Shown here piece after piece: positions 9,312 through 57,050 of a DNA stretch of 64,000 bases (positions are counted from its first letter, which is position 1; the number at the start of each line of letters is the position of its first letter). Source of the stretch: Raillietiella orientalis (taxonomy: Eukaryota). A model generated the notes under the pieces. The model searched no databases. It was given only the letters and a program-made list of their open reading frames with translations, and was not told the DNA's origin. Made by a program: the position numbers and the translations under genes. The stretch is taken from positions 4,216,001 to 4,280,000 of the forward strand of contig JAYWIR010000003.1 of NCBI GenBank assembly GCA_036172245.1. Direction: 5' to 3'.

Positions 9312-11399
9312 GAAAGCTGTTCGCGCTCGGTCTTTCCTCCCTTTGATTTCTAGCCAATGGGGGTTCCACCGCAAGCGACGCAACTCTTTTGTTTCTCCCG
9401 AAGTTTCTCCGGGCACGGGAAAGCCACGGGCACCACCATTCCGTGTTCGCGGAAACCCATCTCGCGCACGTTCCGCTAACGGAGCGTTTTTTCAGGGAGT
9501 GCTGCTCCCCTCGGGACAATCATTTCATCCCATTTTGTTTTTCCATCGGCTCCGGGGGGACTTTGTCGCCGCTCAGCTTGGACGTTTACGTGAGCCACAA
9601 CGACTTTCCCAAGGGTTGAATTTCGCTTCTCGGAGCATCACAGAAAGCCTGCTTTTTTTTTTTTTCTTTTCTCTTCCTGTGATCTTCCGTGCACTTGCTG
9701 CACTCTGGGAGCTTACCGTTCTATCTCCAAGGATACCTTCTTTGCAATTCTAGCGCTCCTTCTTTTCTGCCACGAGTGAGTACCTTTTTCTCATGTAAAG
9801 CAAAGATTGCTCCTAAAGATATCTCCGTTTCTTCTGCTCGAAGTTAAGGAGGTCCAACTTTTTCGCTGCAGAGGAAAGGATCCATCGATTGGCCGAGTGC
9901 GTCAGACCTTCGTCAGCCACACAGCTCGTGTCGCGAATGTCACACACGCCCTGAATTTCAGGGCGGACATGGGGATTTCGGGAATCGCGGAATCGTCCTC
10001 GCAGTCTCAGAGGGGCTCACTCGAGCAGTTGTCGGAGCTGAGCGGTCGCAGGCAAACGTGCATCCAGCAGGTAGGTACGATTATGGCACCGAAGTAGGAA
10101 GTAGGTCGAAAGCTTTTACTTCTGAAGCAAGAGCGAGAATTGCTGTCAGCACCAAGGCGCAAGACATTTCAGGGAAAGAACGGTAATACTCGAGAATTTT
10201 CGATGATGGAGGGAAAGGTCCCGTAGGCAGATAGCAAAGAACTGCTCCCTTTCCTGCAGAAATGGGTGGCTCCCGTTTTCCTCCGTCTGACGGGAGCTCG
10301 CTTTTTTTCCGATTACGAAGTCAGATGTGTTGCAGGGTCCATTATGCACAGTGCCTATCCCCCTTCCCCTCTCAAAGAAAGCACAGGGCAGCAGCCAGGG
10401 CAAGAGAGAACTGGGCGACCCTTTGGAGTCATGCGGTCGAGAGGCCAAGCTTCACAAACGTCGATTTCTTTGGTGGTTTTCCAAACCAAAAACACGTCCC
10501 GCATGCGAGTGAACGTGACTCCGCATCAGCAGCAGACAGCAGTTTTCCGGATAGCAACAAAAGAGCATCACGCCTGGCGTTACAAGCTGCGGAAGGCAGT
10601 TCCTCCGGAAGATCGAAGCTGCCCAGAGGATTACAGCAAAGCCGCACGGTGCGCTCGCGTCGAGGAGGCAGCACCGGGCGGGTTTCCAGCAGTCGATCCG
10701 GAAGGGGTAGCAGCGCGTCCGTAGAGCAGCGTTCGAGATGGGTGCTAGCGGCATTCCTCTCTATTTTTCGCTTTCTAGCCTTCAGTTCCGAGCGGCTGGT
10801 CCGGGACTATCGCAGTCTTTTCTCTCGAGTCTCTCTCGCGCGCTGCACGCAGAACGGGAGAGCGCGTGAGGAACACCGAGGTGGCTGCAAAGGGTAAGTT
10901 GACAAGAGGAGTTCCCGAGGCGTCAAGTCGCGATCGAGTGATTTGGTTGGTGGGAGGCTGTGTTTACAGTTAAGCGCGTGCGGGGAAGCGCCGTAAACCT
11001 GACCGACCGCCTCAGTGCATCGGCAGCGAGAGGGCACCCTGCCCAACCCGTCGTCGTAGGTTTGAGTGTGCACTGCGGTTCGATCCAGTCAAACTCCCGG
11101 GAAGAAGTGTTTTCTCTGCAGGGAGAAATTCGTGGTGCACGCTTCCCAAGTTTGTGGAGGAGAGGGGATGTTTTTTTTTCCAGTCGATGGAGTTGTGGTC
11201 GGAGTGGCGTGCAAAGTTTCGGGAGGGGGAATATCCGGGCGCCAGCGATGCACAAAAACCGAGGACCTTGGCGCTTTGCACGAGCAGCATCAGCAAGCTC
11301 GTCCCGAGTCGCAGTCACAAGTTTTTCGTACTTTCTTTTTTACTAGTTAGCGCGGAAAATCTACCGCGAGATGCCGTTGCAATGAACTCCAGTTGTCGG

Positions 11400-20200: not shown

Positions 20201-23200
20201 GAATGGAGGCTACCATTGCGTCTGCAGGCGGCAGCACTTCCAGGAATCCCGAGGGATCGTTGCGGAGACACCACGGAAGCGCCGGAAGGAACAGGATGGA
20301 AAAAGAAAGCAAGAGTGTCTGCAAGGATGAACGGGGGCACAGGCGGCAGCAGCAGCCAGGAAGAGGGGCTCAAACGGCAGCAGCAGAGGTCGAGGAGGCC
20401 GTATGGGGGAGCGGTGGTGACCCAAGCACTGAGACAAAAGGGCGGAATCCCGGGTCCTGTCTGCCTTCCTGATTCCTGCAAGTGCCTTAAACGGATCCCG
20501 GCCACCGGAGCCAAAGGTGCTCATTCCCGCCCGCGATCCACATCACTGCGGCGGCTCCCCGAGAGGTCGGAAGCGGGGCGCCGCTGCTTAGCAGCCCCTT
20601 AACTTCTATGTGATTCGCCGGCGATGTTCATCCCTATCAGGAGGTGATGCTCGTACTTCGGGTGCCGCCGCGAATGGACGGCGGCAGGAGGACCGCGTTC
20701 TCCGGTCGCTTCCCCCTTTTTTCGACACCTCGCCGGGAACACGTCCCCTCCCTCTCTTCCCTGCATTGGCTCGACCCTCCGACGCGTTCTCCGATCGGGT
20801 TAGGGGCGTGTCCCGCCAAGGCCATCTGGAAGCAGGTGGCAGACTCGGCTCTACGTCCACTCCGCTGGCCCCGGAATCAGCGCTTCCCCCCTCCTCCTCC
20901 TCTTTCACTTCCCCTTTCCATACGTCCTCCTCCTCTTCCCGATCCTTGCAGCGAAGACTGGCGCTTCGTGGACTGCGTTCCCAGGTGGTGAGCGCGTGCG
21001 CTCTCTCCTCCGAAATGAGACGCCTCTGGAGAAGACGGTGATGATCCCACCACTGCCAGTGAGGGCCGGGAAGCAGGGAGCTTCAGCTCCCATCGCCAAA
21101 TGGCTCTGCCTTGCTTCCGGGCGTCACGCGCCTCTCGCGCTCCCTGCGAGGAGGTCCTCCTACGCACCGCTCGCATCGCGCTGCTCCCTCCTCAGGGAAG
21201 AAGAGGGGCGGGGAGAGTTTCGCCTGCCCTGAGGTTCTCTCGGAAAGGCTGCTGCTCCTTCTCATCCCTGGCTTCCCTGAAAAGGGCGCGGGAGTCTCCG
21301 CTTGTATCTCGGGGCGCCTTGAAGAGCAGCAGGGAGCTGCCCGTTGTCCGGAACTTTGGATCGCTTCCGCTCCCGGGAAGACAGGGAACAGGAGGAGGAG
21401 AAGGGGACTGACCCTCCTGCTCGCACGGTCGGGGCCGAGAGAGCTCCTCGAGCGCCGCTGCGAAGGAGCGTCCCCGTCGCATGCTTCCCCCTCCTGACCA
21501 AAGGGCTCTCTCCCGGTTGCGGGACCCCGCAAGCGCCTTGCTCGACCGTCGCCGGCTGTGGCAGCCCGGACGTTCCCGCCGAAAAGAGCGGGAGTGTCCC
21601 TCCTGTGACCTCTTCCCCTTCCTCCTCCCTCCCTCCCTCCCTCCCTCCCTCTCCCCGTTTTCCAGTGCCGAAGGAGGGAGCACTCAGGGAGGGACAAAAA
21701 GAGGGAGGGACAGGAGGCTGAATAAGACGTCGGCGCCTCTGTCAGCGCGCGGACCGCCCGCTCGAGCTGGCTGATGGATGGCGCGAGGCGGTGTGGCGGT
21801 CGCGCACGCAGCGGCGATGCGCCGTCGCCTCAGGGTGACCAGGGCGGAGAAGAGGAAGAAAGGGGAGGAGGAGGAGGAGAAAAGAAGGGAGAAAGGGAGA
21901 AGGGGTGGGAGGGATGGGGGGGGGGGGAGAGGTCGGAAAGCGGGATGACACGGCGCGGATCCCTGCGAGCCTTTCACGCCGGTCGCCCCGACAATGCCGC
22001 CGCGCCCGGATCCCGGCGCTGCCTCTTTCGGCGAGGCACCGGCGGGTGATAAATCGCCCTGCTTTGTCCCCCCCGCTCGCCGTCGCTCCCGGCGCATGTG
22101 CTCTCTCTCAGCGGGGAAACAGTTGGACTTTCGGGAAGGGGGGGGGGAGGGGGAGGAGGAGGAGGAGGGAGGAAGGATGGGCCGGGAGGAGCTGACATTT
22201 CTATTATGGTCCTGGAGACAAACGATCCCGCGGTTCGATTTTTCGCTCTTTTTTTCACTCCTCTTTTCCCGATTTTTTTTTCTTTTTTTTTTGTTTTGCC
22301 GCTTCCTCGGGATCGATCCATCGGTACTCTTTTTGGAGCTTTGACGTCATCAAGCCCTCCCTCGATACCCGGCGGTGTGAGCGGCCACGGCGACGAGGAC
22401 AGGGCGGAACTCCCGCGACGCTGCGGCGCGTAGCAGCAGCAGCAGCAGCAGCAGGCAGCAGGCTGATCGCCGTTGTCCCGTCCTCCGAGGAAGGGGAGGT
22501 AAAAGGGGGAGAGGTGCATCCCGAAGGAGAGGAAGAGGCAGAGGAGAAGCTGACCCGACTGAAGGGGGAAAGAAGATGCGGTCCAGTCCCGGCCTCCCTC
22601 CGAGAGCATCCCTAGCGAGCGACACGTCCTCGCCGTCTCCTCGCTCCCGGGAAGTCAGCAGCCCGAAGGCCGCCAGCGGGGCCTCCGGGCAGGCACGGGA
22701 ACGAATCCCCTCCTGGAAATCCACGGCGAGTTCCTGCAAAGCGGAACTCGCCGTGGCGGGCTCCGCTTCCGGTTCCCATGGAGACATTGCCTGGGGGCGT
22801 GCCGGGAACGCGCAGACCGGAAGCGCCTCCAGCCGGGATGCTCCCTTCAGAGCGCCGGTAGAGCTCCTCGCCTCCGGCCTCCCTGGAGGTCCCTCCCTGC
22901 CTAGGATCCAGCCCTCAGGGGGGAGGGATGCCGCTGCTTTCGGTCCCTTTCCTGTCCCTCCGATCAACCGCGCGCGAGGGCCCGCCGCGGGTTAAGTCGA
23001 TGGAGTCGCGGGAACTTATCAGATCAGCATCGCCCGTTCCCATGGAGATAATCGTTCACTTTGCGCCGCGTGCCGTGTACGCACACACCTCGCATCGCTG
23101 GAGCCGGCGGGAAGGATCGGAGCCGAGCGTTCAGGCGACATGCAGCCTCCTCCCTCGCAGGAGCGGGAAGATCCGGCAGCCTCAACGAGGGCGGAGGCGG

Positions 23201-23285
23201 CGGGCGGGAGCGGGGTGCGACCAGAGGAGGTGCCGCGGGGAGCGAGGGTTGGCAGGGGAGACCTGGGGGAGGGGAGGGAAGGTTT

Positions 23286-23498
23286 GCGGCGGAAGCTCTC
23301 ATTCTTCATGTCCCTCGTGGCGGCGGCGTTCAGAGGGAGAGCAGTCGGTAACTTCACGCTTGGGGGCCGCTCTGAGGTCCAGAGGCTGCTGTTCTCTGTC
23401 ACGGGGGGAAGCTTCTCGGACTTTTGGCTAAGATCAAAGTGGGGGAAGCAGCCATCCCTCCTCCGTCTTCCCGAGAGAGAAGCAGGCAGGAAAATGAG
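23286..23498 (-). pseudogene. Decayed partial third copy of the hamlet-like gene (PLDLS region)
   Basis: Aligns without gaps to 27371..27546 apart from one 37-nt insertion (about 73% identity by hand count). Encodes [15 protein letters not shown] versus [15 protein letters not shown], with a frameshift and an in-frame TGA. Confidence 0.85.
23411..23441 (+). pseudogene. 3'-truncated U2 snRNA retrocopy (about nt 4-33) with target-site duplication GGGGGAAGC (23404-23412, 23441-23449)
   Basis: GCTTCTCGGaCTTTTGGCTAAGATCAAAGTG matches the U2 5' end with one substitution. It is absent from the homologous site in paralog A. Confidence 0.88.
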
Positions 23499-23504
23499 TT
23501 TGTC

Positions 23505-23730
23505 AGTCTTCTTCCTATTCCTCCTTTTTCCTCTTCCGTTTCTCTTTTTCCCTTGTTCTTCCTCTTTCCTTCTCCCACCTGCCTTCCTCCTCCTTCCTTG
23601 TTCTTCCTCTTCCCCTTTCTCCTCTTCTTCTTTTCCTCCTCCTGTCCCCTTCTCCCCCCTCCTCCCTTTCTCCTTCTACCTCCCTCCTCTTCTTTCTTTC
23701 CCCTTCTCCTTCTTCTCCTCCCTCTCTGCT
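23505..23730. repeat. Polypyrimidine (CT-rich) low-complexity tract
   Basis: Almost purely C/T on the + strand. It adjoins the third-copy relic where paralog A has its poly-Glu tract. Confidence 0.85.
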
Positions 23731-26651: not shown

Positions 26652-28158
26652 TCAGCTGTCCTTTCCTGGGGGCGAAGACCGGCCCCCAGCTGTCGCCCGC
26701 TCGGCCTCCGACCTCCCGCTGTCGCTGTCGTTGCTGCTGCTGCTGCTCCTTCCTCCTCCCGTTGCTCCCGCTCCGGAGGAGGCGTCGACGGAGACGCCTT
26801 CCCTTTCGCTGGCGCCGTGCTTCTTGCGATGCCTCTCCAGGTTGGTCTGCTGCCCGAAGCAGCGGGAACAGCGGGAGCACCGGAAGGGGCGCTCCTTGCG
26901 GTGGATGTTGCGCACGTGGCGCTGCAGGTTGGAAGAGATGCTGAAGCAGCGGTCGCAGTACTTGCAGCTGTACGGCTGCTCCCCCGTGTGGGTGCGCAGG
27001 TGGCGCGTGAGGTTAGCGGAGCGCGGGAACGCCTTCCCGCAGTACCGGCAGGCGTGGCGGCTCCTCCCGCGGCTCCGCTGGTCCTCGGCGCCCGCGGCGG
27101 CTCCGAACCGCAGCCCGTCCGGAGGGAACGGCAGGCCGGCCGGATCGGAGGGCGACGGGGGGGTGAGCGCGTGGAGGGCGGGCAGGCCGAACAGCGACGG
27201 CACCCGCAGGGCATCTCCCCTGCCCGGCATCGGGAAGGCGGGGGAGGAGGAAGGGTGGTGGAAGTAGGGGAACAGGGGTGGCCCGGGGGGCGGAACCAGG
27301 TCGGTCAGACCGAGCGGGGGCGGGAAGAAACGGTCCGTCGTGGGAAGAGCAGCAGGAAGCGGCGGCGGCGGCGGCGGGAGTCTCCTCTCTTCCTGCCCCT
27401 CGCGGCGGCGGAGGTCGGGAGGAAGGAAGCCGGGGGCTTCGCGCTTGGGGGCCGCGCTGAGGTCAAGGGGTTGCTGTTCCCTGTCGCAGGGGAGAGCGGC
27501 CGTTGCTCCCCGGTCTTCCCGGGCGGGAAGCGGACACGAGGAAGACCGCCTCCCTTCCTGGCGTCCGCTCTCCTCCTCCTCCTCTTCCTCCTCATCTTCC
27601 TCTTCCTCCTCCTCCTCTTCTTCGTCGTCCTCCCCCTGCCGCCGGTCTCCCGTATCCGCCGCTGCAGGGTCGCCACAGGACCTCCGGTGCTTGGCGAGGG
27701 AGGTGACGTTGCTGAAGGCGTGGCCGCAGCGGCGGCACGCCACCTGCACGCGGCAGTCGGCGTGCATCCGCTTGTGGCGGCACAGGTTGGAGAACTGCGT
27801 GTAGGCCTTGCGGCACACGTCGCAGCGGAACGGCTTGACGCTGGAGTGGATGTGCGCGTGCTGCTTGAGGCCGCTGGACGTGGCGAACGTCTTGCCGCAC
27901 CGGTCGCACGCGTGCGACCGCGCCCCGACGTGCTGCGAGCGGACGTGGCGCTGCAGGTTGCTAGGGTCGTTGAACTCGCGCCGGCAGAACTCGCAGGAGC
28001 GCTTCCGGTCGTCCCCCTGGGGTGGGCGAGGGAGGGGGGGGCCCGGCCAGCGCTCCCGCCACCAGGCCAGAGCACGGGACGCCTCTTCCTGCAGGCGGAG
28101 GTCATCGCCGTCGCCGCGACGGCGGAGGCAGTGGCGCTCCGCGAGGTGCGTCTCGAAC
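26652..28158 (-). CDS. ham: Paralog A terminal coding exon (end of finger 1, four N-cluster fingers, acidic tract, PLDLS, three C-cluster fingers, stop)
   Basis: Open frame extends ORF 26652..27818 upstream to the acceptor ctttgcccttgcag|g. TGA at 26654-26652. Confidence 0.93.
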
Positions 28159-30004
28159 CTGCAAGGGCAAAGGCACGCCCCTCTCCTGCCTCCGCTTCCT
28201 CCTCCTCCTCCCCACCCCCTCCTCCTCCGGAGGAGCCACCCTCGACGCGGAGGGGGAGGGGCAGAGAGGGAAGGGACTGCTGCTACTCACCTCCTGGCGT
28301 CCTCCAGGATTTCGTCGCAGAGGAAGCAGCCGAGGGAGGAGGCGGCGTCTCCATTGCTTGGCCGGCCTGGAAAGGACGGGCGAGGGACGCGTGAGCAGAG
28401 GGGGAGCGATCGTTCCCTCCCTGGAAGGGGAGAAGGAAGGGACCGGCCCGCTCTTCTCTCTGGCGGAGCCTCTGGAGGCAGGGCGCCGTGGAGCGAAGGA
28501 ACTCTCGTCCCTCCTCCTTTCGGTCCTCGTCCATCGCGTACGCGACGGGGAGGGGGAGGGAAGAGGAGCGGGCGGGAACACTTCGGGGTTTTCCCCTGGG
28601 CAGAGAGCACTCACCGGGGTGCGGCGCGCTGCTGTGCCGCTCTTCGGCGGCGGTGGCGCCCTCCGGCGCGGGTCTCGTCTTCTCCGCCTCCGTCTCCTCC
28701 GCTCTCGGGGTCTCCTCAGAGGGGGACACCTGGAAACAGGAAAGTTCAGGGAGCGGGGGGAAGAAATTCGGGAGCCGTACCTGTGCTCCTTGGTCCGCTG
28801 CTTCGGGGGCGTCTCCAGCCGCCGCCGCCGCCGCCGCCGCGGCAGCACCAGCAGCCTGCGGGGGCGTCAGCGCGCGCGCACGCTTCCCTGAGTTACCAGC
28901 GGCGTCCGGTAGGCGAGGGTCCGCCCTGCCCCGCAGCATCGCGAGCTGGAAGGCACACACGTGAGGGGGAGGAGGGGGAGGCGTGGCGGGGGCGCGACCT
29001 GGGAGGATCGCCTCCCGGCCGGAGGGAGCGCCCGCACTCCTCCCTAAGCGCCCTTTGACCTGTCAGTCACGATTACCGGCGGCAGCAGCGGCAGTCCTCT
29101 CCCTCCCCGTGCCGCTCCGCCCCATCCCCATATTCTCCCCACTCCCTTCTCGCCGAGGGACCTGCCGAACGGACTTCTCTCCTCTCCCCCCCCCTTTCTC
29201 TCTCCTCAGGGGGAAAAAGGGGGGAAGGACGATGGAGAGGGTGGTCTATGGGGAGAGAAGGGAAGAGGAGACTTCCAGCCTCCCCAGCCCAGTCCCTCTT
29301 TCGACAGGGGTCGCTTTCCCCCCTGCATGCCCCCCTCTCAGTCCCCGTGCCAGCCTCGCACCGCGATTGGGAGGGGCGGACCGGCCTCGGGGAATGAGAG
29401 GAGGAAGAGGCGACCCCCGCGCGAAAGAGCGTGGGGCGAAGGGAAGCCCCCCGCTTCACGAGCTCCCCGCGTGCGTGTGATCCTCTCCGCCTACCCTCGC
29501 GCCGTGCTGCGGGACCGCTCCTGCACCTGACAGCCGGTCCTCCCGGATAGGGAGGCAGAGTCCCTGCTCCCGGAGTAATCGGCGATTATCGGTCGGCGGG
29601 GCCCGTGGGGAGGCGGCGGCGACTGCGACATTGTCGGGGGGCCCCATTCGCGCGCCCTGCGTCCGGGAAGGCGGGCGAGGGTTAAAAAAAAAAAAAAAAA
29701 AGGAAAAAAAAAAGAAAAAGGAAGAGGAGGAAAAAAGGGGAGGAAAGAGAGAAAGGCAGAGAGAGAGGGAGAAAGGGGTGGGGGGGGGGGCGAAGGGGGG
29801 GAGGGAAGGAGAGAGACGAATGGTTCGCCACCGCCGTCGGCCGCCATTAAGCGACCGACGTTTGGATGCCTCTCGTCCAGGAAGGGGGGACAAAGGGCGC
29901 GCGGCAGATAAGCCGCGACCGACAAAAGGGAAAACGGGATTAGAGCGGAACGGGAGAGGAGAGAAGGGGAGGAGGAGGGAAGCGGGGAAAGAAAGAAGAG
30001 GAGG

Positions 30005-45705: not shown

Positions 45706-47152
45706 TCAGGGCTTTGTCTCCGAAACCTCTTCCTTCATGTTCTGGCCCTCCTGGGAAGACGGATCCTTCGTGACTGGTGGTGGTTCGGCGGAGTCCACCT
45801 CATGCTTGCGCAGGTGACGATCCAGATTGGTCTGCTGCCCGAAGCAGCGGGCGCAGCGCGAGCATTGGAAGGGGCGCTCCTTGCGGTGGATGTTGCGCAC
45901 GTGGCGCTGCAGGTTGGAAGAGATGCTGAAGCAGCGGTCACAGTACTTGCAGCTGTACGGCTGCTCCCCCGTGTGGGTGCGCAGGTGGCGCGTGAGGTTA
46001 GCGGAGCGCGGGAACGCCTTCCCGCAGTACCGGCAGGCGTAGCGGTCTTTGCTCCTGGTGGGCAGGGGTTGCGAGGGCGGCGCTCCAGAGACCGTGCGGA
46101 TGCTGCCGCTGCCGCCCACCATCAGCGCACTCATCCTTCTTCCTCCTGGCACCAGCAGATCGGTCGGCAGACCGACGAGCCCGTAAGGGAAACCTGCAGC
46201 CGCGGCTAGCAAGGCCTCGGCCGGCGCTGCCGATGAGGGCGCGTGGGTGAGACCGACTCTGTCCTCCTCTTCTTCCTCCTCTTCTTCCTCCTCGTCCTCT
46301 TCTTCGTCCTCTTCCTCGTCTCCTTCTTCCTCCTCTTCGAGGCGATGCCTCCCTTCGCTGCTGAAGTTCTTGCTCAGATCCAGTGGTTGCAGCTCCCCGC
46401 CTGCTTCCCTCGGCCCCTCTTCGCAGTCCGAGGTTCCCTCCCGGTCGTAGGGGCACCAAATGCCTCCCTTCCTGCGGTTGGGCGGCTGGGAATGGACGGG
46501 ACGTTGCACCCCGGCGCGGTTATCCCGAGGCGTGCCCACTCCTGCGGCCGCAAGGGAGAATGCAGCGGCTGCGGCTGCGGCTGCCGGGACGGAGGAGGCA
46601 TCGCAGAAGCGGCGGTGCTTGGCGAGGGAGGTGGTCGTGCTGAAGACGTGGCCGCAGCGGCGGCACGCCACCTGCACGCGACAGTCGGCGTGCATCCGCT
46701 TGTGGCGGCACAGGTTGGAGAACTGCGTGTAGGCCTTGCGGCACACGTCGCAGCGGAACGGCTTGACGCTGGAGTGGATGTGCGCGTGCTGCTTGAGGCC
46801 GCTGGACGTGGCGAACGTCTTGCCGCACCGGTCGCACGCGTGCGACCTCATGCCAGCGCCTCCTGCTGACGGTGGTGCTGCGCGGACGGGATGCTGAGAA
46901 CGCACGTGTCTCTGTAGACTGCCTGGGTCGCCAAACGTCCTTCCGCAGCTCTCGCAGAGGTGCTGCGGCTGCTGCTGCTGCTGCTGCTGCTCGAGGTCGC
47001 TCTGGTGGCGGTGGCGGCTCCTCGAGTAGTGGTGCCGATGGGATACAGGGCGTAGTAGCAGTTGTGGCTGCCACGAGAAGGCTTGCGTGTACATCCCGCA
47101 GGGGTGCCAGTCGCGCGCAAATCCGTGACCCTTCCTCAAGTGGACGTCCATA
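45706..47152 (-). CDS. ham: Paralog B terminal coding exon
   Basis: ORF 45706..47151 (481 aa) with seven intact fingers, poly-Q, acidic tract and PLDLS. Acceptor ccactcctcag|t. Confidence 0.93.
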
Positions 47153-50100
47153 CTGAGGAGTGGTGGTGGTGATTGAAGGAGTAAGAGGAGCGGGAGGGGA
47201 GGTGTGGATTGGGGAGAGGAAGAGGGGGAGGAGGGGGGGAAGAAATGCCCTAGTGAGCTGCCCCCCCGTTTCGCTGCGTCCTGGTTCTCTCACCTTCTTC
47301 GTTCTTGCTGCAGCTTCCGGCAGACGAGGCACTTGGCGTCGGCGGCATCGCTGGCAGCTTCTGGGAAACATGCCGTCAGGGAATGCGTGCGGGAAGGGGC
47401 GGACTCCAAGAAGCGCAGGGTTCTCGATTCTACGTTACCTCCTTCTTTCACGCCCAGCGTCAACTCCTGGCGCTTCTCGAAGAATCCTGGTGAAACGTTC
47501 ATCCCATTGTGCTGCTGCCCAGCCCAGGATTCGAAGGGCTCCTTGCAGGGGAGGAGCAAGTTCTTCCTCTGGCAGATGCTTCGGATAACCTCGCAGTAGA
47601 TCTGCAGCGCCCGACGGTGAAGGAAGAGCAACGGCATCATCAAAATCCGTGTTCATCTGGAGACAACGGCTTTACCTTGAGGTTCTCTAGGTGGTCAGCT
47701 GGGTGTTTTGCGCCTGTCATCCATTCTGCCGAGCCCTTAGCGCCAGTGATGCTTCTGCGCTCAACTGGAGCCTCATTCATCTGCAAGGGGAACACGGGAG
47801 GTAGGCAGCCTTCTTTCCACGTTCATCCTCTTAGCACCCATTCATTCGCTTTACTTGCAGCCAGCCTCACTGCTCCAAAGTATTGAAACAGAGCACCGCG
47901 CTCTCCAAGAAGATACGTTAGCTCTTTGGAGCACTCTTGAGATCTGAGAGGTGTTGCACGTTTTCTCGCAAGGAAACTCGTGAAACGCTCACAGCAGATG
48001 CAACGCAGCAAGTAGCTAATGGTTTTTTCTTTCTGGTAGATGCACAGCAGGAATCAGGAATGCACCTTGATTCCAGTTCGCGTATCTTCGCAGAATCCCG
48101 AGAGGATCGGCGGAGCGTTTCTGATGATCCGGCATGTTTGAATGCTCGAGAGAACATGATTTGTCGAGAGCGGCGCGGACGCAGATGCAGAGTGTGGAGC
48201 TCGTGAAAGAGAGGGGAAGGAGGAGAAAGAGAGGAGGGGCATCTGAAAGAAAAGTCTGGAAGTGCAACAACTTGCTTAACGAGAAAACTCGGGAATGCAA
48301 GGCTCCCGGATCGACGAGCCGTGGCGGATTTTTTCCCTCCCTCCTGTATCCATTTTTTCCCCTCGCTTCCCTCCTCATTGTTCTTTCAGATTGCAGTGGC
48401 AATCTGGTTTGTGAGCTCCTCAGCTTTCCAACATGGAATCAGGACGATAGATGCAAGGCGGGACGGGCTATCCACAATAATTTCCCGGAACTGAATGGAT
48501 ACCTATTCCCATGCTCTTTGATAACCGAGTTCAAAACATGCCACAAGAAATTATGAACTGTCCGAGCACATCTTGAGGCTTACAGGATCATTGTTGGGAT
48601 ACTTGCAAGGAATTGTTGGAATATTTGCGAGGAATTGTTGCGATATTCACGGGGCATTGTTGGGATATGCGCGGAGCATTGTTGGGATACTCGCGAGGCA
48701 TTGTTGGGATATTTGCGAAGGATTGTTGGGATACTCGCGAACCGTTGCTGGGTGTTCGCAAAGCATTATCAGATCATCAACGATTGATCAAGAAATCGCT
48801 TGTAGTAAATCGAAATAAAAAGCCACTGAAGCCTTGTAGCTGCATGCGACAAAAATTTCCACAGAGTGCAAACAGGGAGGAAAGAAACATGATTGCTTCG
48901 GCTTAGATCTGATAATGAGAGACCTTGACGTTGTTGCGTGAGTGGTAATACGGTACAAGAGTATCAGAGTTGCTACGAAAGCACAGTGCCCCCAGATGGC
49001 GACTTCCACACATCCGTGCATTGAACACGTCCACCGAAAAAATGAGAGAAGTGACTCGTACGCGCGGCGTGATCGCAAATCTCCAGTCTTTAAGGAACTC
49101 ACGCTTCTCGACAAAGAGTTCTTGAACCTTCTCAGGAGCTCTCTCATTGCTCGTGTTCTCATCGGGGCCTGGTCTGGAGAATCCCTTCTAGAAATAAAGA
49201 AGCAAACAGCTTCTGCTGCCTTGTACGTGCGTGCGTCGAGCCTTTTCCGGACGGTTAGGTCGCGATTAGAAGATGTTGGAGAGAGGCTTTATTTTGCATG
49301 ATTACACGCTGTTCCTCCATTTTCGGTCCACAGGAAGATGAGAGATGAGACGAAGTCTATTCAACGAGAGTAGGAAACCCATAATGGGAAACATCACTAG
49401 CGAAGGATGGTCGCCAATGGCTGCTATTTGGATTCTAGTCCGAAATAGAAAGCGGGTTAAAGATTGACGGAAGGCTTAGCAATGCATCTCTGACCGATCA
49501 TGGACCCTCAGCCGCAAGGATTCGGCCTAGAAAGGCACCTCTGCCAGAAGATGCTGTAGAAAGAAAAAAAAGAAAAAGAAAATGGAGAGCCAGCAGATGA
49601 ATCTCCAGATTGTCGGGAGTCCCGAAAACGTCCGGACCGTACTTCGCTCTCTTGTCCACCACAGGGTGCCAGACAGTGCGAAAGAGGGACGAGGATCTCA
49701 CCGAAGATCCCGAATGCCGTAAGGGGCTGCAAGGTGACTTCTGAGAGCGGGCCGGCATAGCCATTCAGAAGCAGGGTTTCTACGCCTCGGAAGACGACCC
49801 CTGCAGTCCTCCTTTCAAGGGCACGATGTTCACAGCTAGGGGTGGAGTGTGAAGGAAGGAGCGAGGGCAGTAGGAGCGGCCGTCTCCCTTCCTCTCGAAG
49901 TTTCTTGGACGTCGGCCTGTGAGCCGAAGCGCCCGTGAATGTTGGAATCCGAAGCGTTACTTCGGCTGTGGGTCGGGGCGACTCGTCTGGCCCGGGAATT
50001 GCCAGAAGGCACGTCGGAGCCCGAGGTTCCTCCGCGACCCAGAGGTTCCGAAGAGGTCTCCCATGCTTGGCATCCCAGCATGGGGAAGGGCGAAAGGTCG

Positions 50101-51768
50101 CGTTCCGGCAAAGGGGATGGCGGAGGAAGCTCCCTTCCTTCCTTTCTCCCTGCTTTCCGCTGTGTCCACAGCCCCACATGACTGGGGGATTGTCTCGGGT
50201 TCCCTGCGGGAGGAGAGATCCATCTCATGAACGCTCTCCATCCTCGCAAGAACCTTTGGAAGGAGGGGGAGCGATTACCGTCCCCCTTTTTCTCCTCTCC
50301 TTCTGCTCCCTCCCTCCCGGATCCCGTGGCCATTTGGAGAGCGAGGAGGGAGAGGGAGAAGGGGCGGGCGTGGGTGTACGTCCGGGAGGTTCTTTCCCCT
50401 TTCCTCCCGCCCACCTGTTCGCGGGGTAAGGCGGGAGGGAGGGGAGGGGGGAATGTCGCGGACGCGCCGGAAGGCGGCGGGGTCGGGAGGTCGCCGCCGT
50501 GGTCCCGCTGGAAGGGAGTGGTCGGTCGCCCGGCACGCGCTCGCGAAGGCCGCGCGCGCGATGCACGTGCCGGGCGGCCGGCCGCGCACTCCTCCCGGAA
50601 CTCCCGGACTTCTTCGCCCCCGCCGACGGATGTTTTTTACTGCCGCCTCGGCGAGCGTTGCCCCGGGAGACGCTCCGTCTTAATCGCTTGTAAATAAGGA
50701 GCAGCCCGCGCTCCCTGACAACGCCAGGCGAGCGCCCGTTCCACCCGGATGCGCCCGGGGGACGTGCGCGCGCGCGTGGGGAGGGAGATCTCCCTCTCCT
50801 CCTTCGCCTCTTCCCGGACTCCTCCTCTGCTTCTTTCTCCTCCTCCTCCTCTCCCCCTCCCTTTGTCGCGGGGGAGACGAACTTTCCATCCATACGTCCG
50901 GAGCTCCTAGGCCGTCCACGGATCGGGGGCGAGAGCGGGAAGGGGGCAAGCGGAGAGGAATGGGGGAGCTTGCGGAGAGGCCCTCTCTCCTCACTCCTTG
51001 CCTTTCTCCTCCCCTTTCTCTCCCCCCCCCCCCGATCGATGCCCGTCCGTGCGCGCCACCGGGACGTCATCCCCACTGCAATTATGAAATATCGCGTTTA
51101 ATTATCCCGGGAGGGCCTCGCAATGCCGAAGGGAAGGAAAGAAGGAACGGGAGGAAGAGGATGAGGAGAGGGAAAAGCTCCGGGGGATGCCTCCCCCGCA
51201 GTGGGGTAGGAGAAGGAACTCCCTTAATCAGACCCGGGGACCCCTGGGGTCCGTCTCAAGGGCAAGGAGGGGGCTGGGAACGGGACGGTTTCGCGATTGG
51301 GGAGCCACCCTCAAGGTAGCCTCCCGGGATGCACCTCTCTCTTCGGCATTCCCTTCGGATAGCTCTCCTCCCGGAGAAACCTCCCTGAGGGTCCCTTCGC
51401 CCCGGTCCTCCCGGTGCCCCGTGAGCGGTAGCGGCTGACCGCCGCTTCCCCCCTCCCCTACTCGATGAGGGCTTCTGGATAAGGTCGGGGGCTCCGCATC
51501 CGGGAAGGGAGCCGAGGGCTTCCCGTCGCTGCCCCGTTCCCCGAAAAGCAGGCCCTTTCCGGGAAGGGCTGCGGTGGGGCGGGGAGGCTTCCGGCCCTTG
51601 CTGGGAAGAGACTCCGGGGAGAAGGTTCACCCCAGAGAGAGAAGAGGAGACGCTGACCTTCTTCCATAAAAGGCATTCGGGGAGGGGGACGGAGGAACCG
51701 TGGCCGCAGCTCCCCATAGGATCTACCCCGGGGTGAAGAGCGGCGGTGAAAGGGACGAGGGTCCTCAT
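45706..51768 (-). CDS. ham: hamlet/MECOM(EVI1)/PRDM16-family zinc-finger transcription factor, paralog B. Spliced model join(51768..51658, 47780..47676, 47601..47439, 47360..47294, 47152..45706), about 630 aa
   Basis: Same EVI1-type fingers and PLDLS motif, GT-AG introns with phases 0,0,1,2 matching paralog A, PR-like segments GSAEWM...[21 protein letters not shown], and AATAAA about 105 nt after the stop. The first coding exon is tentative; translation could instead start at ATG 47780. Confidence 0.8.
47294..47360 (-). CDS. ham: Paralog B exon carrying the first half of finger 1
   Basis: Acceptor gtttcccag|, donor ag|gtgaga. Splicing rebuilds [22 protein letters not shown] (C-x2-C-x12-H-x4-H), with the intron at the same position as in paralog A. 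Confidence 0.87.
47439..47601 (-). CDS. ham: Paralog B exon with the C-terminal PR-like segment
   Basis: Acceptor ctgcag|, donor gag|gtaacg. [17 protein letters not shown] resembles the PR consensus IYYRVxxDIxPGEELL. Confidence 0.75.
47676..47780 (-). CDS. ham: Paralog B exon with the central PR-like segment
   Basis: Acceptor gttccccttgcag|, donor aag|gtaaag, 105 nt open. Encodes [35 protein letters not shown]. Confidence 0.72.
47900..49800 (+). mobile_element. Decayed L1/Tx1-like ORF2 5' part, antisense within a paralog B intron, interrupted by a minisatellite
   Basis: [25 protein letters not shown] (YAPN..R..FF..IIxGDFN-like) and [11 protein letters not shown] (WKxNxSLLxDxxF-like) occur in order. 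Confidence 0.45.
48589..48770. repeat. 22-bp minisatellite, about 8 copies (CATTGTTGGGATACTCGCGAGG-like)
   Basis: Units start at 48589, 48611, 48633, 48655, 48677, 48699, 48721 and 48743. Confidence 0.9.
51658..51768 (-). CDS. Paralog B candidate first coding segment (within exon 51889..51658)
   Basis: Acceptor ctctgcccgcag| at 51890, donor aag|gtcagc in phase 0. [37 protein letters not shown] ends near a Trp as the PR first-half exon does, but similarity is weak. Confidence 0.45.
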
Positions 51769-55799: not shown

Positions 55800-57050
55800 G
55801 GTCGCGTGGGAGTCTGAGGGGAGAACCAGGAAGGGCACAAGGGGCAAACAACTGCTCTGCGTCCCTCAAAAATGGTTTGGGAAGTGGAGTATGCTGAACA
55901 GCTTTGCAGCTTCCTGGACGATCCCCTCCTCGTCGACTGGAACCCTCTTCCATCCTTTTTCTTGCTTCTTCCGCTGGATGTTGCCCCCGACCACGGGCTG
56001 CTCTCGGAGGGCTCTTGAAGAATCTCCCGCAGCTGGGGTCGGGTGGCAGCAGTGGCAGCACCAAGATGGGAAGGTTGAGCAAGCTGAGAGCAATGCTCCC
56101 GGAAGCTCCGAGGCTGTCCTTGAAAACCCCAGACGGCCCTAACAGGAAAGCTCTTCCCGAAGATCGTCCGGAGATCCTTCTCGAGGTCGTGGACACTTTG
56201 TCCTTCGGCATCTCAACGACCTTACCAAGCTTTCCCCGTTTCTGGACGGCTTTCCAGAGTCTCCACCAGTGTAAGCGAAAGGGTAGTGCGAAAAGGGCTC
56301 TCCGAAGATGATTCCTGAGTGACCACCGAGGGAGATGCTGGAGACGGAGCATAGAGCCGGATGGGAGACCAAAGAGCTCCACTTTGATCTTAGCCAAAGG
56401 GCCGAGAAGCTCCTGTGCTGTCTAAGGGTCTTCTTCTCTCAAGGACCGGGCAGAGGGTGGCTGGATTTTCTCACTTGCTCGGGGGACACAAACGGTGCCA
56501 ACTGGAGTCCCGGGTCTCCGCTACCTGCCTCGAGCTCGTGTTCGGTTCTCTGGCCTCGGAGTTCTAAGCAACCGAGTCGCCAGTGACCTCACAAGGCCTT
56601 GAAACCGAGGTCTCGGACGGCTCAAAACCACCTTCCCTTAAGCCCTGTCTTTTCGATTGCGTCATCACCCACAGATGCTGACGGGTGAAGAAAGCGCCAG
56701 GCAGCTGCTCGAGTCGCTGTCGGATTCGTCTGCGTTGATTTGCCATCTGGCGTTTCCTCGGATCATTAGAGCAGTGAGAAATTTGTCCATCAGATGGAAG
56801 TCCGAACCGAGCCACACTGCCCCAGGCTGGCAGACAGTAGTTATCCTCAGCTCCTTGCAGCGGAGAGCCAAGTCCACTCGACGTATCACTGATGAGCTGA
56901 ATGGATCACTAATCCTGAATGTGGTCCGTGTAGCGAGTGTGGCTCCTCCCCAATTTTCTGCGTTCAAGAGAGGCTGGTGGCCATCAGCATCTCTCGGGTA
57001 AGAAGACCGAAGTTCCTTCCGCTCCCAGAGGCCGAAGGATGCGTGCCTTG
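55800..57050 (-). mobile_element. Probable decayed non-LTR RT fragment hosting the second U2 insertion
   Basis: RGNARWQINADES...RQGLREG and SIALSLLNLPILVLPLLPP resemble RT and post-RT segments; similarity is weak. Confidence 0.35.
56380..56410 (-). pseudogene. 3'-truncated U2 snRNA retrocopy (about nt 4-33) with target-site duplication AGCTCC (56375-56380, 56408-56413)
   Basis: Reverse complement GCTTCTCGGCCcTTTGGCTAAGATCAAAGTG matches the U2 5' end with one substitution. Confidence 0.88.

Follow-up and report, generated by a model that had tools for sequence, protein, structure and literature searches.

The locus at 23404-23449 of the window, by which we mean the whole 64-kb stretch of DNA analyzed here, raises the question of how a short piece of U2 snRNA came to lie between two direct repeats inside the remains of a protein-coding sequence. 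A sequence-only reading of the region had proposed a mobile, tail-less copy of the U2 5' end, brought in by a LINE reverse transcriptase and flanked by a 9-bp duplication of its target. The parts of this insertion, referred to below as copy 1, are located as follows:

23404..23412, plus strand: left copy of the target-site duplication, GGGGGAAGC, which aligns to 27489-27497 in the paralogous gene A
23413..23440, plus strand: U2-derived 28-nt core, TTCTCGGACTTTTGGCTAAGATCAAAGT, corresponding to U2 nt 6-33 (AAAG-type numbering) with C13 changed to A
23441..23449, plus strand: right copy of the target-site duplication, GGGGGAAGC, at which a second blastn match begins, again onto 27489-27497 of gene A

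The core (TTCTCGG...AAAGT) is thus bracketed by two perfect copies of the repeat, exactly as had been reported. With the overlapping repeat bases counted in, the U2 piece becomes a 31-mer (23411-23441) that corresponds to U2 nt 4-34 and carries the change at C13 as its single substitution, i.e. 30 of its 31 bases are identical to AAAG-type U2, and the identification as the U2 5' end in its AAAGUG form held up. Closer examination of the junctions revealed that the last GC (or AGC) of the left repeat can equally be attributed to U2 nt 4-5 and the first G of the right repeat to U2 G34, with which the branch-point recognition motif GUAGUA begins. If this first G and the last GC of the repeat are assigned to U2, 6 bp remain that belong to the target only. 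The 3' end of copy 1 falls on the first G of GUAGUA, the position at which the fragment had been said to be cut, and no A-tract or A-run is present in the sequence 3' of it, in agreement with the earlier remark that a poly(A) tail is lacking. At up to three mismatches the 31-mer had two matches in the 64-kb window and none in 100 shuffles, while a 17-nt part of it was found at the same two places, compared with 0.09 expected.

In the comparison with Rfam that the sequence-only reading had suggested, model positions 3-33 of Rfam U2 (RF00004) do align to copy 1, but with 13.8 bits (local E 0.65) the match stays below the gathering threshold of 46 bits that applies to U2 genes. The second copy described below aligned over the same model positions with 22.7 bits (local E 0.006), and the window had no RF00004 match at the gathering threshold. 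Both copies are far below 46 bits; they are fragments and not U2 genes.

To judge whether the U2 piece is an insertion, the sequence that harbors it can be compared with a paralogue that lacks it. The relevant elements are:

23242..23572, minus strand: host fragment B, a decayed MECOM/hamlet-like gene linker recognized by tblastn, blastp and its translations
26652..28286, minus strand: gene A, an open MECOM/PRDM16/hamlet-like C2H2 zinc-finger frame, which served as the empty-site comparator
27489..27497, plus strand: empty paralogous site, GGGGAGAGC, located inside gene A by blastn
45706..47289, minus strand: gene C, a second open paralogue; its linker has diverged so far that no alignment is obtained where the insertion lies

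By blastn, 23286-23412 of fragment B matched 27371-27497 of gene A (74.8% of 127, E 9e-24) and 23441-23491 matched 27489-27539 (72.5% of 51, E 7.7e-5). These two matches overlap on 27489-27497, and both copies of the repeat consequently fall onto the same 9 nt of gene A. When the 37 nt from 23413 to 23449 were left out, 129 of the 170 columns of the DNA alignment between B and A were identical with two gap columns, so that the gap-free alignment announced earlier was nearly, although not strictly, obtained. At the protein level the same removal restored the reading frame and yielded a single in-frame blastp match to residues 199-300 of gene A (45.7% of 105, E 5e-19), compared with a best match of just 27.6% of 163 when the insert was kept. 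The claim of a true insertion opposite an empty paralogous site was upheld by this result, and as far as sequence comparison reaches, copy 1 is confirmed as a true insertion with a target-site duplication.

The translation of fragment B reads ...SREDGGGMA directly before the insertion junction, retains a DREQQPLDL motif and, 37 codons beyond the junction, encounters a stop codon in frame, in addition to the frame shift introduced by the 37-nt insertion. No zinc fingers were detected in or near B by tblastn. Judged by these features, B is no longer a gene, and the insertion struck a fragment that is decayed at least now. The sequence-only reading had aligned the host to paralogue A, of which the host is only a decayed piece of ~330 bp and not a complete copy. 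Its statement that the insert is much younger than the host was loosely grounded, because the ~25% divergence dates the split of the paralogues and not the site. In the preferred reading neither of the U2 copies has a function, and the only effect of copy 1 is a further frame shift in a fragment already in decay. Fragment B as such is an orphan MECOM-like linker piece with a DREQQPLDL motif that resembles a CtBP-binding motif. The two open paralogues, for their part, exhibited 96% DNA identity confined to two zinc-finger blocks of 225 and 244 nt (26836-27060 and 27676-27919 in gene A vs 45821-46045 and 46604-46847 in gene C) with linkers that could barely be aligned, a pattern that suggests either gene conversion limited to the parts coding for the fingers or a constraint that varies greatly along the genes.

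The second place at which the 31-mer matched, 33 kb away and on the opposite strand, had been absent from the sequence-only reading and is referred to as copy 2:

56408..56413, minus strand: left GGAGCT repeat, overlapping U2 nt 4-6; weak, with four of its six bases possibly U2's own
56380..56410, minus strand: second copy of the U2 5' end, nt 4-34 with T15 changed to C, two mismatches to copy 1, matched by Rfam U2
56375..56380, minus strand: right GGAGCT repeat, overlapping U2 G34

Copies 1 and 2 have the same U2 ends (nt 4 and nt 34), and both are without the first 3 nt of U2, while their substitutions are private and different (C13 to A and T15 to C, respectively). As in copy 1, there is no A-tail in the sequence of copy 2. 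Its repeat is treated here as an unproven duplication, since four of the six bases can be explained by U2 nt 4-6 and G34. With unrelated flanks and opposite orientations, the two copies represent independent events. The word "mobile" used in the sequence-only reading is not supported: the two copies in the window differ in their private substitutions, and nothing suggests that copies beget copies. An assembly artefact or a chance resemblance is hardly credible as the origin of these stretches, given 30 of 31 U2 bases, the absence of such matches from 100 shuffles, the presence of another copy 33 kb away and a duplication that corresponds to a single site in the paralogue.

No third copy was found in the window by a relaxed scan that allowed up to 9 mismatches of 31; among the 20 shuffles that served as control, 19 were without a match and one had a single match. 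An 11-nt match to U2 nt 2-12 at 9623-9633 was no better than chance (blast E 9.3). No matches to short motifs of U1 and U6 were obtained in the window, which also contained no tRNA genes. Among the 62 weak matches of an Rfam scan of the whole window by E-value, the sole relevant one was U2 at copy 2. From the sequence, a U2-derived spliced-leader gene or a tiny intron was considered and rejected, as on the gene strand the insert is not spanned by a GT..AG pair and does not continue into anything like an Sm site.

Tail-less retropseudogenes were reportedly treated in 2004 by Schmitz. In the description given by Noll 2015 (PMC5322556), these elements are 5'-complete, truncated at defined single-stranded positions, devoid of an A-tail and flanked by duplications. 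That paper counts 2402 human elements, with U2 tied with tRNAs as the largest source (666 each), as well as 638 in mouse, 63 in anole, 8 in maize and none in chicken or platypus; its survey, in the portion of the text available, extends to vertebrates and three plants and includes no arthropods. The class is reported there from therian mammals, anole and, with few copies, maize, and it is tied to a relaxed L1 in therians and anole (PMC5322556). Among the human and cattle U2 entries visible in its supplementary tables, 16 of 19 measure 33-39 nt (PMC5322556). Similarly, most human U2 copies are assigned by Doucet 2015 (PMC4476161) to Group III, heavily 3'-truncated with a duplication, which that paper cites as the former Class IV of Denison and Weiner 1982.

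The features of the window copies were compared with this class. Both originate from the 5' end of an snRNA (nt 4-34, with the first 3 nt absent), both are truncated at a G that is unpaired in the structure line of the Rfam consensus, and both are without an oligo(A) tail; for copy 1 there is in addition a perfect 9-bp duplication of a single paralogue site. In their near-5' start, defined single-stranded truncation, missing A-tail and U2 source, and in the case of copy 1 also in the duplication, they resemble the elements described in the accessible part of Noll 2015. They differ from Doucet's Group III, which is human with L1 as the enzyme according to the text available, in that the first 3 nt are missing. 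On balance we regard it as reasonably probable that the two stretches are dead-end, tail-less retrocopies with heavy 3' truncation, made from the U2 snRNA of the cell itself, and for both we infer an RNA intermediate. The copies are a fresh example of an already known class of snRNA retropseudogenes and as such mostly ordinary. In the literature on tailless and invertebrate snRNA retropseudogenes, no title reported arthropod snRNA copies of the tail-less class; judged by title and start of the abstract, the papers retrieved for snRNA retropseudogenes in invertebrates concern human L1/Alu biology or general retrocopies, and the sequence AUCAAAGUGUAGUAUCUG had no match in the literature.

The target sites of the two copies set them apart from the class made by L1. 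For the latter, the parts consulted of Noll 2015 (PMC5322556) give TT/WAAAAWW as the target consensus, state that target and RNA are complementary over 2-18 nt, and make the case that L1 reverse transcription is primed internally where the RNA is exposed. In contrast, copy 1 sits at GTCACG/GGGGGAAGC (i.e. GTCACG/GGGGG) and copy 2 at AGCACA/GGAGCT, which together read as a G-rich CACR/GG, and the complementarity of the target to the 3' end of the RNA amounts to only about 1 nt for both copies, so neither the L1-type target nor the L1-type complementarity was found at either of them. The window duplications (9 bp and at most 6 bp) are also shorter than those of the class as presented there, and the host looks arthropod-like. 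With regard to the proposal of a tail-less retrocopy made by a LINE reverse transcriptase, the structure does fit a class attributed to such enzymes, whereas the enzyme itself was an inference and the targets are not L1-like. No reverse transcriptase or endonuclease domain was detected in 243 of the 259 ORFs of at least 120 aa in the window; the 16 ORFs outside that scan overlap genes A and C, and four further ORFs covering the stretches of these genes (with ends that differ by at most 3 nt) contained no reverse transcriptase domain.

Only the end product of the process is seen in the sequence, and its steps can be proposed after the internal-priming model of Noll 2015. An endonuclease of a retroelement, or a break, would produce a staggered cut of 9 bp at the first site and about 2-6 bp at the second. 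The 3' end thereby released on the bottom strand (...CC-3') would then pair with U2 where the RNA is exposed and single-stranded, at the G34 that opens the branch-point recognition sequence, and from there a reverse transcriptase would copy U2 back toward the capped 5' end. A microhomology of 2-3 nt, (A)GC, might serve to join the end of the cDNA to the far side of the cut, whereby the first 3 nt would be lost, and filling in of the stagger would give rise to the target-site duplication. Microhomology is indeed present at the junctions on both ends of both copies.

These same junctions bear on another explanation, according to which a double-strand break with staggered ends arose by chance and its repair took up a fragment of U2 cDNA or RNA, by endonuclease-independent end joining and not by target-primed reverse transcription by a LINE. 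Target sites that are not LINE-like, junctions that both have a microhomology of just 1-3 nt, which resembles end joining, and a window in which no LINE was found are all in its favor. However, a 9-bp duplication that is clean, with nothing deleted and no filler added, would more typically result from an enzyme that cuts with a stagger, the identical U2 ends of two copies point to a regular process, and the literature on templated insertions contained no paper linking repair insertions to snRNA. We therefore consider capture during break repair unlikely. Less probable again, and by a clear step, is a copy of a U2 gene or pseudogene made directly from DNA, through ectopic templated repair or gene conversion and without any RNA step: the insert is short and nothing in its sequence proves an RNA intermediate, but it starts within 3 nt of the 5' end of the transcript without bases from the promoter side, as fits an RNA template, and it ends within the exposed single-stranded region of the RNA as do members of the published class. 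We rate this origin as very improbable and retain a retrocopy of the U2 transcript as the preferred reading.

A different relation to reverse transcription would exist if the copies were products or remnants of a U2-headed, SINEU-like retroposon, whose reverse transcriptase would switch template onto U2 at the same point and whose body would here be lacking or have a length of zero. According to the portion consulted of Kojima 2015 (PMC4494074), SINEU and Tx1 elements of crocodilians have repeatedly gained short U2 pieces at their 5' ends, and like the window copies these elements possess a short U2 5' module acquired through template use by a reverse transcriptase. In contrast to them, SINEU has a shared body and a poly(A) tail according to the same text (PMC4494074), and the window copies have neither. 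The sequence directly after copy 1 is host sequence that can be aligned to the paralogue, which excludes a U2-headed retroposon for the window copies, and the flanks of the two copies match neither each other nor the rest of the window nor any of the fetched loci; a SINEU-like body was rejected for the same two reasons. Overall, an origin from such an element is decidedly improbable. Also rejected was a U2 gene split by a Utopia or Keno LINE. These LINEs, which are also found in arthropods, interrupt U2 genes within the same conserved stretch, but their site is at nt 38/39 with a U2 gene and a LINE as flanks, as stated in the available text of Kojima and Jurka 2015 (PMC4640811), while the break in the window is at nt 33/34 between unrelated host flanks and the window has no LINE.

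U2 heads outside the window were examined by two scans. For the first, of metagenome sequences, the query was the 3' end of the copies followed by a non-T, and 62 loci with 48 distinct sequences were obtained. Similarity to U2 extended past nt 34 in five of these (four full-length U2 genes and one copy limited by its contig), about 15 consisted of a U2 head and one of two shared bodies, about 15 were heads followed by unique sequence, and about 12 were not U2-like upstream; an ungapped sorting rule had misplaced L008, L027 and L053, which were reassigned by eye. The combinations of a head ending in ...AAAGTG with a shared body, ~15 of the 48 distinct stretches, speak for an origin from a U2-headed retroposon, as does locus L044 with two tandem heads, the first of which ends in ...AAAGTG and is directly followed by ATCGCTTCTCGG..., an arrangement that would be expected from template switching onto U2. 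On the other hand, the query demanded a non-T after GTG and the endpoints are biased by this design, so that the scan demonstrates the existence of heads and not a preference for nt 34. Among the heads with unique sequence behind them, to which L044 also belongs, a 9-bp duplication is seen at L010, and at L027 and L049 there are ~21 extra bases and then repeats of 8 and 7 bp, respectively.

Two U2-headed, retroposon-like families are present in this collection of metagenome contigs. In each of them, one comprising L002, L019, L021, L023, L026, L028, L031, L034, L037, L041, L053 and L060 and the other L043, L050 and L056, a U2 5' head that ends in ...AAAGTG leads into a shared body. Several copies are 5'-truncated within the head, and from their sequences the families look like SINEU-type elements outside crocodilians.

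The second, unbiased scan was directed at genome contigs and returned 50 matches in 48 loci. The majority continued as canonical U2 (36), ten were variant U2 genes and one was cut by the end of its contig, while truncated heads accounted for only three matches, ending at nt 33 (L083), nt 37 (L091) and ~nt 41 (L071). The match at L091 (positions 138-176) is a 37-nt AAAG-form U2 5' fragment with no duplication visible; its contig, 291 nt in length, is from a MAG titled Candidatus Midichloria. Members of Candidatus Midichloria are tick symbionts. A separate observation concerns L070, L092, L095 and L105, all from one bacterial MAG bin, which contain U2-like genes with GATCAAGTAGAAATAACTGTTC in place of the branch-point recognition sequence and account for 6 of the 50 matches; with two U2-like matches each, L095 and L105 form arrays.

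Regarding the lineage of the host, the sequence-only reading had called AAAGUG the invertebrate form of U2, and this is supported indirectly only. The vertebrate consensus is GATCAAGTG, with 11 occurrences in the file of Table S10 of Noll as far as it was visible, compared with AAAGUG in the window copies, and AAAG-type genes are present in eukaryotic contigs. Full-length U2 genes on contaminated contigs of bacterial MAGs (L063, L064 and L066) scored 166-173 bits and begin with ATCGCTTCTCGGCCTTTTGGCTAAGATCAAAGTGTAGTA or ATCGCTTCTCGGCCTTTTGGCTAAGATCAAAGTGTAGTATCTG. In a quick tree of 29 homologues chosen among 120 listed and the two MECOM-like proteins of the window, the latter grouped within the arthropods, with ticks and a sea spider as their neighbors, and the clade of 14 rows received an SH-aLRT of 100. 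Both proteins sit on long branches, and the arthropod placement is therefore a lead and not a proof. By the MECOM/hamlet tree the host genome is probably arthropod-like, and by the U2 form together with the tree it is probably not that of a vertebrate.

The occurrence of two copies in a single window was considered in terms of density. The human density is 233 per Gb according to the part consulted of Noll 2015 (PMC5322556), a value at which 0.015 copies would be expected in the 64-kb window, and the presence of a second copy has p ~ 0.015 under a simple Poisson for one window. A second copy beside the one already flagged is thus a hint of a density above that of human. A wider idea, which we put forward as doubtful, is that in this probably arthropod genome the first 34 nt of U2 constitute a high-copy, retro-inserted module, made by a reverse transcriptase other than that of L1 which would begin, or change template, precisely at the G that opens the branch-point recognition sequence; families of U2-headed retroposons from unrelated eukaryotes do share this U2 endpoint. 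If this were true, a property of the U2 particle and not of the enzyme would dictate the entry point of the reverse transcriptase, and two independent copies in 64 kb would represent a density far above the human value.

Taken alone, copy 1 is a small genomic fossil of comparative value. The empty site, the non-L1 targets and the second copy suggest that in an arthropod-like host another reverse transcriptase can act at the same position of U2, and the interest of the locus is modest and resides chiefly in the lineage and in these target sites. A genome-wide count would separate a rare accident from a process common in the lineage and would be a natural read-out of U2 snRNA exposure in vivo.

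Two further observations were made elsewhere in the window. G-rich or C-rich low-complexity hairpins at 21608-21725, 28190-28281 and 50261-50464 gave weak microRNA-like Rfam matches far below gathering, which are most likely effects of base composition. In addition, a tandem array of ~8 copies of a 22-nt unit with the consensus CATTGTTGGGATATTCGCGAAG is located at 48563-48767.
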